Assembly (NCBI GenBank): GCA_000146465.1 | Contig: CP001947.1 | Length of the DNA: 64,000 nt | Reading direction: 5' to 3' (one strand) | Part shown: positions 19,806 to 47,583 of the stretch, piece by piece | How positions within the stretch are numbered: the first letter of the stretch is position 1 | Layout: every line of letters starts with the position of its first letter | Program-made: the position numbers and the translations under genes | Notes under the pieces: model-generated | Seen by the model: only the letters and a program-made list of their open reading frames with translations | Databases searched by the model: none | Told to the model about the DNA's origin: nothing

Positions 19806-20786
19806 TCAGAAGTCGACATCTATCCTGAACGAATCATTTCCATTATCTATCCCCACAAATGCCTTCTGGTACTGTGACTCTCTCTTGTCGAAGAAGTTTG
19901 TCTTTCCAACCAAAGAGATGTTCTCCATAAAATCAAACGGGTTGGGAGTATGGTATATCTTCTCCTCCTCAAGATTCTCTAGGAGAGTATCGGCTACAAA
20001 CTCTATATATTTGCACATCAACTGGCAGTTCATCCCTATAAGATCCACTGGAAGACTTTCACTCAGAAACCTCTTTTCAACTTCGACTGCATCCATCACC
20101 ACCTCCTTTACTCGCTTGCACTTCTGTTTCAGGTAACGTCTATGCAAAAGGCATGCAAACTCACAGTGCAGACCCTCGTCCCTGCTTATCAGCTCGTTCG
20201 AAAACGTTAGTCCAGGCATCAGCCCTCTCTTCTTCAGCCAGAATATAGATGCAAATGACCCAGAAAAGAATATACCCTCCACACAGGCAAACGCCACAAG
20301 CCTTGTTGCAAAGTCAGAATTCTTATCCTCAATCCATTTTATTGCCCAATCGGCCTTGTCTTTCACAGAGGGGATAGTTTTGACTGCATTAAAAAGGAAC
20401 TTCTTCTGTTCTCCGTCCCTTACATACGTGTCAATCAGCAGGCTGTACATCTCACTGTGGATGTTCTCAATTGCAATCTGGAACCCATAGAATAGCTTTG
20501 CTTCAAGCATCTTGACCTCGCTGGAGAACCGCTCCACCAGATTCAGATTGACAATTCCATCAGACGCCGCAAAGAATGCAAGAACATTGGAGATAAAGTG
20601 CTTCTCCTTTGGATTTAACTTCTTCCAATCTTCAATGTCTTTGTCGAGGAGAACCTCTTCCACAGTCCAGAACGAGCTTTCAGCCTTCTTGTACATCCTC
20701 CATACATCTTCGTGTTGTATGGGAAAGAGTACAAACCTCTCTTCTTTAGGATCCAATAGTGGCTCAATTTTTTCTTCGCAACTCAT
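19806..20786 (-). CDS. RNR2: ribonucleotide reductase small subunit (R2)
   Basis: Full-length R2 with the di-iron/tyrosyl-radical region ([41 protein letters not shown]). Confidence 0.92.
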
Positions 20787-21064
20787 AAGCTATTTGACAG
20801 AATCTGCTTATATACTTTTTTTTGGAGGGAATATCTCCCTCAAAATAATAATCATCTAAATTCAATTTTACAATCCTTGCTCGATCTAATTTCGTCGATC
20901 CCCTCTTGGCATTTGGCTTCACCCACCTAAGCCATGGCGGGAGAGCGGCCCCAGAACCTAAGCTAGGAATGACTATTTATTGTAAATAATGTTCCCTATA
21001 AAAGGAACACTGGTATTATTTATATTTACTGCACCCTATATATTATAACTATTATTGAATGTTT

Positions 21065-21717
21065 TTACTCAAGATCAATAAATTCCTTTCTCATGAATGG
21101 TAATATACGTTTTCTCGCATTTGCAAACCAATTATCTATTTGAGACAATTTTAGTCCTGTTTCTTTAGAAAGTATTTTTTTTCTATTTTAGTTGGATAAG
21201 GATTAGAAAGATGCTCCTTTAGCCATCTTCTTAGCATTTTGGACACTTCTCTTGGAAAATTAGCTCTCCTAGAATGAGGACTACTTCCGAGCCAACCATT
21301 AGTTGATGAATTATTTCTTATATAACTCTCATACCTGTATAAATCCCTCTCGTTCATTACATTCATCATATCTATGATGTTGTCCATTTTTCTTTGGAGT
21401 TTGGTGCATTCTGAATCAAATATAGAAACAAGATTTTTTTCAAATAGTAATGCATACTTAAATTTCTCAGCAATTAGAAACAAAGCTAGCTTGTGTGATA
21501 AGTTATTCGGAAAAAAATGTGTATTGGAGCATGTTTCGTAATTTTTCCGAATTTTTAATAGGACTTCCTTCAAATGATGTTCATTTATCATTCCTTGAAA
21601 ATATTGTTCTTTTGCGATTAATATTTGGCCAATATGCTCCACCATATCTAGAAAACTATCGGCATTTAAAACAAAAATTGATAAACTCGTAATTAACGTT
21701 ATAAAAATAATATCCAT
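21065..21717 (-). pseudogene. TALE-class homeodomain gene interrupted by a 1-nt frameshift in an A8 run (pseudogene or homopolymer error)
   Basis: ORF 21151..21717 ends ...FPREVSKMLRRWLKEHLSNPYPTKIEKKYFLKKQD*, i.e. helix 1 plus the PYP TALE loop. The -1 frame continues ...ILSKETGLKLSQIDNWFANARKRILPFMRKEFIDLE*, i.e. helix 2 plus the helix 3 WFxNxR motif, to a stop at about 21065. The two frames meet at the T8 run on the + strand at 21175-21182. Confidence 0.65.
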
Positions 21718-21797
21718 ATCACTTCAGAAGACTATTATAACTTGTCAAACTCATCAAGACAAGATAAAGTATAAAATAAAAAGATATTTTACAAAAT

Positions 21798-23276
21798 ATG
21801 AATTTAGGATGGCTACTGAAGATTCCAATGCGAAAACATTCAAACAGGAAAATAATTGTATATGAAAATAGCATGGCTTCGTTTTACTCTAGGACGTTTG
21901 AAATAATTGAAGAGCATATTTCTACCATATCCAATAATGAACATCATAGAGATGGATTAGTAGAGTATATAGAAATGTTATCATATTTTCAAATCTCTAA
22001 TGAAGATCATGAGAAAAAAGAAGAAATTAATAGACAAAGGCAAAGCTTACTTAAGAAATTTAGATCCCTAACCTTAATTAGTATTTCAAAAGTAGAAAAA
22101 GACAATAGGAAAATATTGAAATCTTATCATGGAGTATTACATCTTTTAGATTTGATTGGTTTTGGTGTAAATCCTTATGAAATGGTTTTAAAAAAATGGT
22201 TAAACACCAATTGTATGATAATTAGTGATGTAGAAAGACATGCCATAAGAGGAAATTTCGAAAAAGTGATCGAAGCATATCCCTATTTAAACGAGGCTAT
22301 TAATAATTATTTAAACTTAAGGAAGACGTCAGGAAATGAATACAGGAAATTATTTGCGTCTTGGAAGATCAAATATTTTAAAATTATTCCCAATAATTTA
22401 AAGGAAATTCTTTTTCATAATATTAACGGGGATGGTATTGACTGGATTGATCATATTTGCTATAAATCGTTTTGTATGAACACACAAAGGAATGGGATCG
22501 ATCTTATAAATAGGGAAGATGAAATCGGAATGATATTAACACATAATTATGATGCACTAATAGAACGTTCTAAAGGATGGATTAGACTAGTATTATTGTT
22601 CGTTTGCCCTCATACAAAATTTGATTTATTTCCAAGAGCATTTGAATCTATCGGGAAATTCCTATATTTATCAGATTATCGCTTATCTTTGAGATTTTTT
22701 TCGTACACAGAGAAACTAATCTTATACTTTAATCACTTTTCCTGTAAGTTTTCTAAAAGTCTTTCGGATTTAGAATTCTTGGTTGAGTATTCCAAAAAAA
22801 ATAATATTAATGGAAATTCTTTGTTAAAAGAGTACTGCCAAAATCTTCTTTCTAATCAAGAGTATTATAATCTTTTTTATGTTATATCTAAATATGAGCT
22901 CTGCGATATAAACATAAATTCCGAGTTTATAGAATTCTGTATTAGAAATACAACAATACTAACTGAAAACTTCACTAAAACATCGTATGGAATTTTTATT
23001 GGAAACTTTAGGAGATTTCTTAGTGGAATAAAAGTTGGTGAAGGTGAAATTATAGCATTGATAAATTCAGATTATTTTTCAGCTCTAGATAGTAGAACAT
23101 TTGAAATAATACTAGAGAACAGATGCATTACTGTGAACATGCTTTATAAGCTTTTAGAAGGAATGTTAAATGTGGAAAGAAAAGGGAAGTCTAATCCCAT
23201 ATTGAAAAGCAAAAAAGCTTTAGTTCTCAATAAGTTAGCGGAATCTACAGGTCTCGGGAAGGACATATCAATTTAA
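21798..23276 (+). CDS. hypothetical AT-rich lineage-specific protein (492 aa)
   Basis: ATG start; Asn/Ile/Lys/Phe-rich composition; no homeodomain or other recognisable domain; transcribed divergently from the HD gene with an 80 bp intergenic gap. Confidence 0.45.
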   Translation: MNLGWLLKIPMRKHSNRKIIVYENSMASFYSRTFEIIEEHISTISNNEHHRDGLVEYIEMLSYFQISNEDHEKKEEINRQRQSLLKKFRSLTLISISKVEKDNRKILKSYHGVLHLLDLIGFGVNPYEMVLKKWLNTNCMIISDVERHAIRGNFEKVIEAYPYLNEAINNYLNLRKTSGNEYRKLFASWKIKYFKIIPNNLKEILFHNINGDGIDWIDHICYKSFCMNTQRNGIDLINREDEIGMILTHNYDALIERSKGWIRLVLLFVCPHTKFDLFPRAFESIGKFLYLSDYRLSLRFFSYTEKLILYFNHFSCKFSKSLSDLEFLVEYSKKNNINGNSLLKEYCQNLLSNQEYYNLFYVISKYELCDININSEFIEFCIRNTTILTENFTKTSYGIFIGNFRRFLSGIKVGEGEIIALINSDYFSALDSRTFEIILENRCITVNMLYKLLEGMLNVERKGKSNPILKSKKALVLNKLAESTGLGKDISI

Positions 23277-23614
23277 ACTATTAAACTGGTAGTATCAATT
23301 TAAATTACAAATACTTTGGAAATATCTCCTTCTGTTTATTAACTTTTCAAGGGATTGCCGTTTTTTAAAACAAACATATAAGAGTGATGATACATAACTT
23401 CTTTTTGTATTCTTAAGTAAATTCATGTAAAATTTTAGAATAAAATGTCCGAAGATATTTGAGTTCCTATAGCAATAGCAGAAACACACCCTATCTCAAT
23501 TCATTATACTTCCTGGGAATCCATACTTTAAAGATTTAAAGTAAAACTAAAAAGGAAGGGGGTGTTTATTTCAATAGATTAAAATCGAAATATTGTATTT
23601 TTAAACTAAGAGAT

Positions 23615-26461
23615 TTAATGAGCAAACACTCTGGAGACATATACCGGCCCGAGTATCTCATCAATAGAGAGGTCTTCTTTTGCTATCTCGTTGACAGCCT
23701 CAACAACTTTCTCTTCATAGCTCAGGTCGATTATACCCCTTAGATACTTGTTCCATATGTCGGTGCTGTAGATTTCAAAGTTTTTCTTCCTTTCCCTGAA
23801 GAACGAGATGACTCCGTTTCGGAACTCTTCAAACTGATCTTCGCTCATCTCTCTGAAGTATTCGTCCAGGTCTTTTACAAACTTCCTTATCCTCTTTTCA
23901 AGGAAGTCTACATCCTTCTCGCTTTGCACTATGAATTTGATGTACTGCTCGTCATCTAGATTCAGAACCCCAGACCCAACTACATACCCAAGCTCTTCCT
24001 TTGTCCGCAGATCATCGAAGAACATCGCTTTGCATGACTGTTGTACAAAGTGGGCTATGGCTGCATCCTTGTGGTTCCTGCATTTTCCGCAATAGTAGTT
24101 CAAGGAACATGCATTGTTCACCTTGTCGCTTGTTTTCACATCACATCTGTATTTTCCATCAAGAAGATCTTTCTTTACATAATCGTATACTTCCTCCTGT
24201 TTCGAAAGAATATTTTCAAATATCTTCTCGGCATCTTGATACTCGATGTTCCCAATCACAAACATTTCCAAGAAGAACTTTCGGCTCATCTTGAATTCCG
24301 TGTCTACAGAGCTCAGCTTCTCCATCAGCTCCTCTGCCATCAAATGTCCGGGAATCCTCATGCACTTCAGCCCTTCATTGCATCGCTTGTGAGGGCTTTC
24401 GTTTCTCTTTGTCTCAAACTCATTCCAAATCCGCTCCTTCACAAGGTTCCGCCGTGACTGGTTGGGCTCTTCAAACAGAATGTCGAAAAACTGCCGGGAG
24501 ATCTCAACACTCATGTGGTTAAAGCATTCTATCCGAATCTCCACCCCATAGTGCTCGACACGAACATCGATGTTCATTCCTGTTCCGTGAAGATATCCAT
24601 CGTGCCTTCTAAAGAATTGGCTCTTGGCATTTCTGAGCAGAAATATCAAGTTAATCATGTTCTCATTGATTTGGTCCATTCGAAGAAGACATCCTATAAA
24701 GACCTTTGGAACCTTGTAGGTATCGTTAAACAGGTAGTTGATTTTTCCTCCAGAAACCTCCTTTGAAATAATTTCTGAAGGGGCCTCGATTTTTATCATC
24801 TCTCCTTCCTTCCACTCAACTGCCTTCTCCAGTGAGTCTTCAGAGACCACTTTGTCTTTTTCATTGTACTTCGGAGAATACACCTCTTCTGTTTTAAACT
24901 CCCCCTTTAAATCCTTTTGCCCTTGAAGTTCGAGCCATTTGGAGAAATCCGTCATCTTCTGGACAATCTTCTTGACTTCTTCTTTCTTTCCTTTAGAGGA
25001 CTTCTGGGGAAGGACATTTGGGAACACCTTTTCTTCTTTCTTTGGTAAGTCCAACTCAAATATCTGGTCTCCCACATTGTATCTCACCCCATATATCTCC
25101 TCGCGCATGTCAAACATCCCTGTTCCCTTTGCAACATGGAACACAAGCCACTTTGGGAAGTTCATCATCTTTTCCACAATCCCCTTGATCTCGTTCTTGT
25201 CAAATTTCTCAAAACAGTGTTCGTTATCAAGAACATTCTCAACCGGGAAAAACTGCATGTTTCTAGAGATCTTCTGTGCCTGGTACATAGGCTCGTCACT
25301 CTCCTCGTACTTGAACACATATCTCGATCTCTTTTGGATCTCTTCATACTCATCAGAAGAGATGGGGATGTCTTTGAGATACCTTACAAGTTCTAAAAGA
25401 ACTCTTTCAGGTCTTTTGTTTCCCTCGGAAGACAGATGCATTGTTATTATTATCAGAGAATAGTCTGTGTAGTGGCACATCTCATACTCAACCTGCAGAA
25501 CGAGCCCTTTGTCCTTAACCCTACATGCAAACCCCTTTGTATCGTCCCGAAGAAACATATTCATTACATACTCGTAAGGATTGTTCTTGAAAATCTTGTA
25601 CCCCGACTCAACAGTCATTGTAACAACAATCGATCTTGTATCTGCAATAGGCTCCACCCTGATCCATCGGTTGGTGTATTCAGAGTCAAACACAGTCCAT
25701 TCCTTGTCTGCTTCAAGTTCTATGTTTCCACTGCTCTTCTTCTCCTCGGTCCCCTTTGGAACCCCCTCAAACATCTTCAACATCTCCTTTAGCTCCTCCA
25801 GACCTTTGTTTCCACAAATCACTGTACACATTTTATCGCAGGAATACTTCTGTTTCCAGAACTCTGCCATCTCTTCCCATATCCCTTCTTTTCGAAGTGT
25901 GTCGTAGTTTCCTGTGCTGAACATAGATATCGGCAGTTCCTTCTTGCAGCATCTTGAAATCATCCTCCAGATCCTCCAGTCATCAACATTCAGTCCGTTA
26001 CAGAACTCGGAGTTCACAGCCGACACCTCTCTCTCCACCGAGTTTTTCTTCAGCAGTGGTGTCTTGAAGAAGTCTGCAAGTCGGTCCACCCCTTCTTCAA
26101 AAGCCTCAGGAGCAATATCGAAGTAATACACAGTAACCTCTCCATAGGTGGAGGCATTGTATTCCCCGTTGTTCTTTGAAAGGAATTTGCCAAAATCCTC
26201 TTCATCAGGGTATTTCTCAGTCCCCATAAACAGCATATGCTCAAGGAAATGTGCAAGACCTTGAGTAGATACCGGGTTATCAAACGATCCAACCTTGACA
26301 GAGACTGCACAGCTGCACTTGTCCAGTGAAGGATCCGACATAATCAGCCCTCGCATCCCGTTGGGCATCTCGACATACTCATATTCCATCGAGTCGGTGA
26401 GACTCTTGTGAATCTTTTTGGCAACTTTAAGACAATTCATTAAAGCGGAAAGCCTAACCAT
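23615..26461 (-). CDS. M16A zinc metallopeptidase (insulin-degrading enzyme / insulysin-like)
   Basis: Inverted zinc-binding motif HFLEHMLFMGT (HxxEH) and the downstream E; about 950 aa of M16 architecture; start set at MVRLSALMNCLK (CCC upstream) because the ORF-track start at 26599 would overlap the divergent neighbour. Confidence 0.85.
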   Translation of the reverse strand: MVRLSALMNCLKVAKKIHKSLTDSMEYEYVEMPNGMRGLIMSDPSLDKCSCAVSVKVGSFDNPVSTQGLAHFLEHMLFMGTEKYPDEEDFGKFLSKNNGEYNASTYGEVTVYYFDIAPEAFEEGVDRLADFFKTPLLKKNSVEREVSAVNSEFCNGLNVDDWRIWRMISRCCKKELPISMFSTGNYDTLRKEGIWEEMAEFWKQKYSCDKMCTVICGNKGLEELKEMLKMFEGVPKGTEEKKSSGNIELEADKEWTVFDSEYTNRWIRVEPIADTRSIVVTMTVESGYKIFKNNPYEYVMNMFLRDDTKGFACRVKDKGLVLQVEYEMCHYTDYSLIIITMHLSSEGNKRPERVLLELVRYLKDIPISSDEYEEIQKRSRYVFKYEESDEPMYQAQKISRNMQFFPVENVLDNEHCFEKFDKNEIKGIVEKMMNFPKWLVFHVAKGTGMFDMREEIYGVRYNVGDQIFELDLPKKEEKVFPNVLPQKSSKGKKEEVKKIVQKMTDFSKWLELQGQKDLKGEFKTEEVYSPKYNEKDKVVSEDSLEKAVEWKEGEMIKIEAPSEIISKEVSGGKINYLFNDTYKVPKVFIGCLLRMDQINENMINLIFLLRNAKSQFFRRHDGYLHGTGMNIDVRVEHYGVEIRIECFNHMSVEISRQFFDILFEEPNQSRRNLVKERIWNEFETKRNESPHKRCNEGLKCMRIPGHLMAEELMEKLSSVDTEFKMSRKFFLEMFVIGNIEYQDAEKIFENILSKQEEVYDYVKKDLLDGKYRCDVKTSDKVNNACSLNYYCGKCRNHKDAAIAHFVQQSCKAMFFDDLRTKEELGYVVGSGVLNLDDEQYIKFIVQSEKDVDFLEKRIRKFVKDLDEYFREMSEDQFEEFRNGVISFFRERKKNFEIYSTDIWNKYLRGIIDLSYEEKVVEAVNEIAKEDLSIDEILGPVYVSRVFAH

Positions 26462-26550
26462 AAGGGCTTCCAAGGTTCTGTTTATAGGAAAATTTTGTCT
26501 GGCACTACTGGAAAATACGAGAAACCGCCCCGGAATGACCCTGAAATAAC

Positions 26551-27873
26551 ATGGAGACTGCAAGGAAGATAAGGAGACACAAAATACTTGCATATGCACT
26601 GACTGCGGTGGAGGCCATGGGGCTGTCTGTGGTGGTTAAACAGGCCGTCAGGAATCCGCTTAGAGTTCTTTTGAATCCACCGAAGGGCCTTGTGCGAGGT
26701 CTGTGTTCCATCCCTACTATTATGCTATGGATTGCCATATACATATACCTTTCGGGGAAAGTTGCACAAGAAGCAGGAAGGCCTCGGACGGTCATCTTCT
26801 TCTATCATCTTACCTCACAGATAATGTTTTTGGGGTACCTTTCCAAGCCGGGTTCAGATGTTGGAATGAATAGTAGATGGGTCACGCTTATACCAACAAA
26901 CGGATGTTCTGTATACAGCGTGGCTCTTTCCATATCCTCGGCAACACTCCAAACATATATTGAGGAGATTCTATGGATGAAGCCAAGATACACACGAGTT
27001 AGAGGATTGTTCAACTACATGGGAAGAAGTATAGGAGTGATGGTGCGAGACATGTTTTATCTTTGTATTGGCAGCGAGTTCATGGCAATAGGTGCTCTTA
27101 CGATGTGCTTGGTAGTCTCGAAGACTCTGTTTCCATGGTCACGCCTTGGACCTTTCTGGTTATTCCAGGGAACAGCTTGGAGGATGTCTGGGGGGTTTTT
27201 GGCTGCCAACATCTCTACTGCTGCTTATTTTCTTCTGATGAGTGCCATTGATAGGCTTCTAACTTACAACATGTCACTGATGAATCTTGGCTTGGGCGAC
27301 TACTGCTGTAACGAGGAGGAGAGCATCAACACCTCAAGACTGAGGTTTTTCCAGATATCCGAGCTTTCAATGAAATATCCCGAGGTTTTCAAAAAGGTGG
27401 CAAGATCAAACAAAGCTGTTTCGTCCCTTGGGCTGTATGTCCGTAGAGAAGAAAGAGAGATTTTAAAGATCATGGAAACGATGAGGAGAGAGAGGGAAAC
27501 ACTTGAGTCCCGAATGTGGTTTTCTGTTCCCCAGATCACCCAACCTCTAGACAAACCAAAGGCGTTGGTTGTTCAAAGAAAAGTTCAGTTTGTAAAGAGA
27601 ATAAGATCGTATAATTTCATTGAGATTCTTGCATCCAGGATCGTATACTTCTTTAAGATACGTATTTTGATTAATAGATACAAGGGCACCAGAAGACCGT
27701 TCCTTCTGGTAAAGAGCTTTATGAAGTTTCTAGAGAAATATAGAAGGGACTACCTACTTCTCAAGGATCTTGACGAGACGTTTGAGGCCTCGATGAAGAA
27801 TCTGCACAACGAAATCTCCAACACCGAGGAGGTGATTGGGATTGGTCTGGAGTCGGAGCTGTTCTGTAAGTAA
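26551..27873 (+). CDS. hypothetical membrane protein
   Basis: ATG with CCC 13 nt upstream; several hydrophobic segments; basic C-terminal half. Confidence 0.45.
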   Translation: METARKIRRHKILAYALTAVEAMGLSVVVKQAVRNPLRVLLNPPKGLVRGLCSIPTIMLWIAIYIYLSGKVAQEAGRPRTVIFFYHLTSQIMFLGYLSKPGSDVGMNSRWVTLIPTNGCSVYSVALSISSATLQTYIEEILWMKPRYTRVRGLFNYMGRSIGVMVRDMFYLCIGSEFMAIGALTMCLVVSKTLFPWSRLGPFWLFQGTAWRMSGGFLAANISTAAYFLLMSAIDRLLTYNMSLMNLGLGDYCCNEEESINTSRLRFFQISELSMKYPEVFKKVARSNKAVSSLGLYVRREEREILKIMETMRRERETLESRMWFSVPQITQPLDKPKALVVQRKVQFVKRIRSYNFIEILASRIVYFFKIRILINRYKGTRRPFLLVKSFMKFLEKYRRDYLLLKDLDETFEASMKNLHNEISNTEEVIGIGLESELFCK

Positions 27874-47511: not shown

Positions 47512-47583
47512 GACGGTGTGGCGCAATGGTAGCGCGTCGGATTCCAGTCCCGAAGGTTCTAGGTTCAAATCCTAGCTCCGTCA
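47512..47583 (+). tRNA. tRNA-Trp (anticodon CCA)
   Basis: GACGGTG-TGGCGCAATGGTAGCGC-GTCGGATTCCAGTCCCGAAG-GTTCT-AGGTTCAAATCCTAG-CTCCGTC-A; A box TGGCGCAATGG, B box GGTTCAAATCC; anticodon loop TTCCAGT; very close to the metazoan/fungal tRNA-Trp consensus; T-rich tract downstream. Confidence 0.85.

Follow-up and report, generated by a model that had tools for sequence, protein, structure and literature searches.

The A+T-rich islands of Schizosaccharomyces pombe act as replication origins; they measure 0.5–1 kb or more, are ~72% A+T against a background richer in GC, lie in intergenic DNA and occur in hundreds. On a larger scale, GC-poor troughs of 100–300 kb, one per chromosome, lie at mapped centromeres or retrotransposon clusters of several yeasts, and the local drop in synonymous-site GC has been put down to suppressed recombination and an absence of GC-biased gene conversion (Lynch et al. 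2010, PMC2997560). Encephalitozoon species have the textbook minimal eukaryotic genomes, whose chromosome cores are described as compositionally uniform and whose centromeres are unlocated. Here we analysed a stretch of 64,000 nucleotides of Encephalitozoon intestinalis chromosome VI (GenBank CP001947.1, assembly GCA_000146465.1; hereafter the window) and an AT-rich island within it that carries two genes: Eint_060650, a TALE homeobox gene orthologous to E. cuniculi HD-12, and Eint_060660, which encodes a 492-amino acid (aa) protein resembling the nucleoporin Nup85. Like the yeast troughs, the island shows a conserved low synonymous-site GC at a fixed chromosomal position, but it spans 1.2–2.7 kb, has step-like edges and is mostly coding; unlike the S. 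pombe islands, it is largely coding and single within at least 64 kb. We consider it probable that the island is an ancient, position-specific AT-rich domain, anchored on HD-12 and actively maintained, which in E. intestinalis has been enlarged by the Nup85-like gene.

Maximum-likelihood segmentation placed the GC trough at 20968–23619 (2,652 bp, a feature without strand), and the island was delineated further by z-scores, GC profiles and the step-like shape of its edges. Its GC content is 0.283 (28.3%) against 0.436 (43.6%) for the remainder of the window, corresponding to z = −11.1 when set against 1,121 windows of equal size. Outside the island no 500-bp window of the 64 kb falls below 0.34 GC, and the island is the sole trough there. 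At 100-bp resolution, its edges coincide with the 5′ end of RNR2 (20786) and the 3′ end of an insulinase gene (23615). A first-pass annotation, made from the sequence alone, had described this sharply bounded trough and two divergently transcribed genes inside it; trough, bounds and both genes are real, although the flanks have a GC content of ~43–45% and not 45–47% as was stated. Among the 40 open reading frames (ORFs) of at least 150 codons in the window, the two island genes have a GC content of 0.29–0.30 and a GC content at third codon positions (GC3) of 0.26–0.28, as opposed to 0.41–0.49 and 0.41–0.58, respectively, for the other 38. The two coding sequences take up ~78% of the E. intestinalis island (2,060 of 2,652 bp), and coding sequence makes up about half of the ~1.2-kb E. 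cuniculi island.

Three mutational or mobile origins of the trough were considered and set aside. The CpG observed/expected ratio is 0.70–0.77 in the island and ~0.55 in the flanks; this lack of CpG depletion makes methylation-driven decay unlikely. Both indices of repeat-induced point mutation (RIP), TpA/ApT = 0.85 and (CpA+TpG)/(ApC+GpT) = 1.31, fall on the non-RIP side, and a RIP-like process was rejected. Insertion of a mobile element was likewise rejected, as neither terminal inverted repeats nor target-site duplications were found at the island, where only short AT-rich chance repeats occur.

To place the island among related genomes, we compared the locus with another E. intestinalis assembly (GCA_051312795.1, L001; 20,981 bp of its 208,851-bp contig match window 9806–30785 at 99.986% identity), with E. 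cuniculi chromosome VI (L002), with E. hellem (L003) and with Logan contig SRR21633403 (L004), which represents a 56%-GC relative (hereafter the Logan species). In E. cuniculi, E. hellem and the Logan species, the insulinase gene is followed by a spacer of ~400–550 bp and then by HD-12. The next gene is RNR2 in E. intestinalis, E. cuniculi and E. hellem, whereas unrelated genes follow in the Logan species. RNR2 and the insulinase gene, whose possible adjacency in relatives had been raised in the first-pass annotation, are separated by HD-12 in E. cuniculi and E. hellem, and in the Logan species RNR2 is missing after HD-12. On the Logan contig, from 8577 on, genes for aldolase, a dynein light chain and ribosomal protein L2 replace RNR2 and PTPA. 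This loss of synteny directly after HD-12 marks the island as a rearrangement breakpoint.

The low GC content of the island persists across these species. Step-like GC transitions, within ~100 bp of the coding ends of the neighbours, are present in all four, and the region between the neighbouring genes has a GC content of ~27–32% in every species, against backgrounds of 48% in E. cuniculi, 45% in E. hellem and 56% in the Logan species. The GC3 of HD-12 is 0.27, 0.32, 0.27 and 0.28 in the four species, compared with 0.47–0.81 for neighbouring genes. The spacers of the island share this composition (0.22–0.36 GC, whereas ordinary spacers have 0.28–0.44 in E. intestinalis and 0.42–0.61 in the 56%-GC species). 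Purifying selection acts on HD-12, whose ratio of nonsynonymous to synonymous substitution rates (dN/dS) is 0.09–0.20; its synonymous sites are saturated (dS >1.5), as are those of its neighbours. Since saturated synonymous sites still stand at ~28% GC, the AT-richness is old and actively maintained and is not the residue of a recent transfer. These data show that the AT-rich domain already existed when E. intestinalis, E. cuniculi, E. hellem and the 56%-GC relative diverged. For a domain the size of a gene to remain at ~28% GC in genomes that otherwise drift from 42% to 56% takes a strong and very local force. We found no description of the persistently low GC (~28–30%) of HD-12 across species in the literature searched.

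The second island gene gives this force a test case. Nup85 (also Nup75) is an ACE1-fold scaffold nucleoporin of the outer-ring Y-complex of the nuclear pore, and the yeast protein has 744 aa. Eint_060660 (21798–23276, plus strand; GC 0.287, GC3 0.26) encodes a shorter protein of 492 aa, which structure prediction identifies as a divergent member of this type. The product of the window's ORF is identical to that of Eint_060660 in E. intestinalis strain ATCC 50506. The chance of an open 492-codon frame at the composition of the island is ~7e-20, and identical 492-aa proteins are encoded by five E. intestinalis contigs. A HMMER search of 1.84 billion representative sequences recovered 38 proteins at E ≤ 1e-3, the query and 37 homologs, the best of which aligned over the full length at 37% identity (E = 7e-78). 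Named members of the family come from Vairimorpha necatrix, Gurleya vavrai, Conglomerata obtusa and Astathelohania contejeani. A Pfam search with the 492-aa protein gave no match, and when all 38 members were searched no Pfam family was matched by more than one of them (best E = 0.014). Similarly, PDB sequences searched with the 38-sequence family profile gave no match at E ≤ 10, and a word-index protein search with the 492-aa query and a 15-sequence profile returned the query only, low-complexity words having saturated the candidates.

Structure prediction with AlphaFold2 and the family alignment yielded a confident all-helical model, with a predicted local distance difference test score (pLDDT) of 89 and a predicted template modelling score (pTM) of 0.83; residues 1–17 are of low confidence. 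Nup85 has an N-terminal strand that completes the beta-propeller of Seh1. The family alignment was required, as prediction from the single sequence reached a pLDDT of 40. At E ≤ 0.001, Foldseek returned a single match to the model, a 655-residue chain of the human nuclear pore complex (template modelling score 0.58), which is longer than the island protein. Superposition of the predicted model on solved Nup85 showed an ACE1 fold. The modelled fold is closest to yeast and human Nup85, followed by the ACE1 proteins Nup96/Nup145C and Nup84, and its identity to Nup85 of known structure is ~10%. The UniRef name of the protein is also Nup85. A 2005 survey listed a Nup75/Nup85 homolog in Microsporidia, which may be a member of the 492-aa family. 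Judged by the model, the protein is a very divergent Nup85-like scaffold nucleoporin and not an orphan, with orthology to Nup85 as opposed to other ACE1 proteins not firm. It had been annotated as having no detectable domain; this holds for Pfam, whereas the protein is one of a family found across the Microsporidia, with a predicted fold like that of Nup85.

The Nup85-like gene resides elsewhere in related genomes. In V. necatrix and three uncultured relatives, two of which are close to Encephalitozoon and have ~53% GC, it is linked to genes for a Glx-tRNA synthetase (GlnRS), a proteasome subunit, PAP2 and GCN5, and in three of the four genomes Yju2 and a zinc-finger gene lie on its other side. 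This shared linkage indicates that the GlnRS-adjacent site is the ancestral position. At that site the gene matches its neighbours in GC3, the values for gene and neighbours being 0.72/0.74, 0.64/0.73, 0.20/0.23 and 0.33/0.30 in the four species; in E. intestinalis the gene has a GC3 of 0.26 versus 0.54 for its neighbours. Neighbour joining placed the E. intestinalis protein as sister to those of the two closest relatives, a position within the clade that indicates descent there and counts against import from an AT-rich donor. The fraction of FYMINK residues (Phe, Tyr, Met, Ile, Asn and Lys) is 0.42 in the E. intestinalis protein versus 0.22–0.27 in its closest relatives, pointing to AT pressure on the protein sequence itself. 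Additionally, at the GlnRS-adjacent site of a further Logan contig (SRR21023573, L006 8001–8939), the Nup85-like gene encodes just 312 aa with an aberrant acidic tail, which suggests that it is decaying in that relative.

No Nup85-like gene adjoins HD-12 in E. cuniculi, and no divergently transcribed partner gene of HD-12 was found in E. cuniculi, E. hellem or the Logan species. The 175 nt upstream of E. cuniculi HD-12 match the E. intestinalis promoter plus codons 1–38 of the Nup85-like gene at 64% identity (E = 3e-11). This remnant, at L002 7717–7888, retains ~115 nt of the gene (~38 codons left) and reads MNLVWLLKVPIKENINNR and then, after a frame change, ENHVWNFYVSIY, matching the conserved FY motif of the family. 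The remnant indicates that the gene had entered the island before E. intestinalis and E. cuniculi diverged and that E. cuniculi later lost it by deletion. About 1.3 kb has been deleted at the E. cuniculi locus. No remnant was detectable at the HD-12 loci of E. hellem or the Logan species. The presence/absence variation between species that had been anticipated is thus seen for one of the two island genes. According to the first-pass annotation, the same two genes at the same composition and in conserved synteny in relatives would make the island an old, ordinary AT-rich stretch; this description fits HD-12 but not the Nup85-like gene.

On these data, the Nup85-like gene moved or was copied from the GlnRS site into the island in an Encephalitozoon ancestor, where it took on the composition of the island and an Asn/Ile/Lys-rich protein sequence. 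The E. intestinalis domain is 2.65 kb long, as opposed to ~1.2 kb, because the Nup85-like gene is still held there. Collectively, the comparisons show that the AT bias is position-specific and persistent and falls on coding and non-coding DNA alike, including a gene that moved in. A relocated nucleoporin gene with the composition of the domain amounts to a natural experiment on a local compositional force.

These results also bear on the proposals, made in the first-pass annotation, that the island contains only lineage-specific genes and stems from horizontal or recent acquisition of AT-rich DNA, or that it is a fast-evolving host-interaction locus. The sharp compositional contrast and a 492-aa protein with no Pfam domain would suit either proposal. 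However, HD-12 is syntenic in at least four species, and the position and composition of the locus are conserved across them with synonymous sites saturated. The Nup85-like part is absent from the other three, with a remnant kept in E. cuniculi, and its protein was inherited vertically within a microsporidian family, in a clade-internal position and with no foreign affinity. Mobile-element signatures are lacking and the RIP indices are negative. As for host interaction, both products are predicted to be nuclear proteins, and HD-12 evolves at a dN/dS of 0.1–0.2. Acquisition from outside or a host-interaction role is therefore hardly credible as an explanation of the island.

In the maintained-domain reading that we favour, the island would be a small stretch of chromatin that escapes a force raising GC across the chromosome core. 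GC-biased gene conversion is one candidate for this force and a transcription-linked bias is another; escape from it would leave the domain at an AT-rich mutational equilibrium. Several points weigh against this reading. The cause of the AT bias is argued by inference; the step-like edges are sharper than expected from gene-conversion tracts, which makes the mechanism its weak part. A working nucleoporin gene is an awkward tenant of a supposedly inert domain, and that gene may have been either relocated or duplicated with differential loss afterwards. Moreover, telomere-to-telomere papers report a near-absence of GC deviation in chromosome cores (2.5-kb windows), and this published uniformity suggests that such islands are rare or are missed with windows of that size. 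Our view covers one chromosome region.

A cis-acting role could account for the same trough. If the island were a centromere or another cis-acting element, such as a replication origin, it would be the binding site of kinetochore or origin proteins on chromosome VI, and suppressed recombination or direct selection for AT would keep its GC low. We regard this as distinctly unlikely, and as having a slender chance at best in its specific form, in which the HD-12 island is the centromere, or an essential cis element, of chromosome VI, extends over 1–3 kb near mid-chromosome, was missed by 2.5-kb scans and has similar counterparts once per chromosome. The island does lie at 0.42–0.48 of the chromosome length in three species, and it is the sole trough in 64 kb; structural changes also concentrate there, in genomes that are collinear elsewhere (gene insertion, deletion and the synteny break after HD-12). 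GC-poor troughs mark centromeres in several yeasts, and published chromosome-wide GC and repeat scans have found no microsporidian centromere. Nevertheless, the island consists mostly of coding DNA on which purifying selection acts, whereas genes are usually sparse in centromere cores; troughs in yeasts span 100–300 kb and not 1–3 kb; and no shared repeat or motif is evident. The telomere-to-telomere authors, who saw no GC deviations in the cores, favour subtelomeric centromeres. If one such trough marked each chromosome, microsporidian centromeres could be located from sequence alone.

HD-12, on which the domain appears to be anchored, occupies 21065–21645 on the minus strand, as defined by Pfam, orthologs, the conserved start and the stop-codon coordinates. 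Its orthologs share 56% identity in E. cuniculi, 52% in E. hellem and 47% in the Logan contig of the 56%-GC relative. The intact E. intestinalis protein has 193 aa. As the first-pass annotation had recognised, the gene is frameshifted in this sequence: the minus-strand ORF 21151–21717 stops within the homeodomain, and the recognition helix SQIDNWFANARKR resumes in another frame. Three-frame translation traced the shift to an A8 homopolymer on the minus strand (21175–21182; T8 on the plus strand) within the 'IEKK' codons, which lie between helices 1 and 2 of the homeodomain. The run has one A fewer than the in-frame A9, and helix 3 (WFANARKR) is thereby out of frame in this window. Adding one A to the run produced a repaired protein that matches Pfam Homeobox_KN at 69.6 bits (cut-off 24; E = 2e-19) and has the three-residue loop extension between helices 1 and 2 that is typical of TALE proteins. 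Its closest solved homeodomains are TGIF, PKNOX and MEIS, and yeast MAT alpha2 is among the detectable structural relatives. The gene thus shares with E. cuniculi HD-12 the chromosomal position, Homeobox_KN, the three-residue loop, WFANARKR and the A-tract codons; unlike the A9 gene of E. cuniculi, the copy in the window has A8 and an out-of-frame recognition helix. A metagenome scan for more HD-12 orthologs gave two weak TALE matches on JGI contigs (50% identity over the homeodomain only, and 29%), which are probably unrelated TALE genes.

The shorter tract is not confined to this assembly. GCA_051312795.1 carries A9 and an intact recognition helix, and this is the sole indel in 20,981 aligned bases; over 21 kb, the two E. 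intestinalis isolates differ by two single-nucleotide polymorphisms (SNPs) and this one indel. Four accessions of the protein collection represent the truncated 164-aa product; one accession and one Logan contig represent the intact one. Because >300x Illumina data underlie the assemblies of the three newest isolates, the A8/A9 difference is probably a real homopolymer polymorphism among isolates and not a sequencing error, and it accounts for the annotation of a truncated HD-12 in the reference genome. At the same codons, E. cuniculi has A9, E. hellem has A8 followed by G, and the run is interrupted in the 56%-GC relative. The A9 of E. cuniculi points to a conserved slippage-prone site that toggles the homeodomain between truncated and intact.

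The frameshifted allele gives some weight to a gene-specific cause, in which HD-12, and secondarily the gene beside it, is AT-rich owing to silenced chromatin or to rare codons for low expression, as might befit a regulator of a rare life-cycle stage. The allele occurs in four accessions, including the reference strain and two of three new isolates, from which one may argue that HD-12 is dispensable for growth in culture. Moreover, the edges of the island fall exactly at the ends of the neighbouring coding sequences, and Encephalitozoon encodes Clr4, Swi6 and other heterochromatin components. The main text of the E. intestinalis single-cell RNA-seq paper mentions neither island gene. Codon selection on HD-12, however, leaves the shared composition of the spacers and of an unrelated relocated gene unexplained, and with CpG not depleted there is no signature of methylation decay. 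We consider a gene-specific cause unlikely.

The homeodomain also invites comparison with mating-type loci, a possibility that the first-pass annotation had named. HD-12 would then be one idiomorph of a recombination-suppressed sex-determining region. TALE homeodomain proteins are a class found in fungal MAT loci, MAT alpha2 being a detectable relative, and AT-richness would fit a long-term lack of recombination, as would presence/absence variation of one gene fit such a locus. On the other hand, the same HD-12 ortholog sits at the site in all four species, the island holds no second homeobox gene, and the divergent partner is nucleoporin-like. No idiomorphs were seen: the 492-aa proteins of five contigs are identical, and 21 kb differ by 2 SNPs and 1 indel, in what is a small sample of a near-clonal species. 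HD-12 further lies outside the three homeobox clusters proposed earlier as candidate mating-type loci (chromosomes 3, 4 and 10), which themselves showed no idiomorphs. A mating-type-like role is accordingly very improbable.

The start codon kept among HD-12 orthologs is the ATG at 21645, and 21717, the start at the level of the ORF, is probably unused. With the conserved ATG, the spacer between HD-12 and the Nup85-like gene is probably 152 bp, and the 80 bp given earlier hold as an ORF-to-ORF measure only. This divergent promoter region (21646–21797, no strand) has a GC content of ~22%, and a four-species alignment revealed a conserved motif, TTTAAAT(A/G)CCGAT, upstream of the HD-12 start. A distinct promoter style had been proposed for the island because its genes lack a start-proximal CCC motif said to mark most core genes. 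The motif is present within 25 nt upstream of just 20 of the 40 ORF starts, and RNR2 lacks it too; a style set apart by the absence of CCC is not borne out, since half of the other ORFs are likewise without it.

On the left, the island is flanked by RNR2, which encodes the ribonucleotide reductase small subunit (19806–20786, minus strand; Pfam Ribonuc_red_sm, E = 4e-108; GC 0.435, GC3 0.535). A promoter element of RNR2 lies just outside the AT-rich core at 20807–20841 on the minus strand and consists of an inverted repeat, GAGGGAGAT/ATTCCCTCC, an A8 run and GTATATAAG. It is near-identical in E. intestinalis, E. cuniculi and E. hellem. GTATATAAG is also retained in the Logan species, though RNR2 is not downstream there. 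Between this promoter and the 3′ end of HD-12, at 20880–20960, is a patch of ~60% GC that is partly kept in E. cuniculi and E. hellem and may act in regulation or encode a further small RNA. The right flank is an insulinase-type M16 peptidase gene (23615–26461, minus strand; GC 0.43, GC3 0.54) that matches Pfam Peptidase_M16 and related domains. The annotated protein has 948 aa, whereas the mechanical ORF (23615–26599) gives 994 aa from a GTG; CCC is present just upstream of the annotated start.

Just downstream of the insulinase stop, between it and the 3′ end of the Nup85-like gene, at 23443–23560 on the minus strand, we found a non-coding element of ~120 nt that is a candidate H/ACA box small nucleolar RNA (snoRNA). 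Unlike the DNA around it, the element is strongly conserved across the four species, with copies at L002 7512–7638, L003 7506–7628 and L004 7667–7790. In a consensus two-hairpin fold, 94% of cells are paired and four compensatory pairs occur, and a hairpin-hinge-hairpin-ACA fold was predicted independently in three of the four species. An ANANNA-like hinge is also present in three of the four, and GACATTTT and an ACA followed by a T-run are invariant. The element thus shares with H/ACA box snoRNAs the hairpin-hinge-hairpin-tail layout and an ACA near the 3′ end, but it is known from four sequences and stands far under the Rfam threshold, the weak match to SNORA75 scoring 23.8 bits (E = 1.3) against a gathering score of 80. 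The covariation, from four sequences only, is suggestive and not significant, as 28–42 of 500 shuffles equalled the four compensatory pairs. The candidate is lacking from the gene tables of these loci.

Scans of the island for tRNA genes and for Rfam families at the gathering threshold gave no match. Within the window, the only tRNA, and the only Rfam match at gathering level, is a tRNA-Trp (CCA) at 47512–47583. Finally, no gene is called in 1.5 kb of the E. cuniculi locus with 50% GC (L002 11903–13430), where E. intestinalis and E. hellem have a gene for a 434–439-aa SDA1-HEAT-like protein; this is probably a gap in the E. cuniculi annotation.

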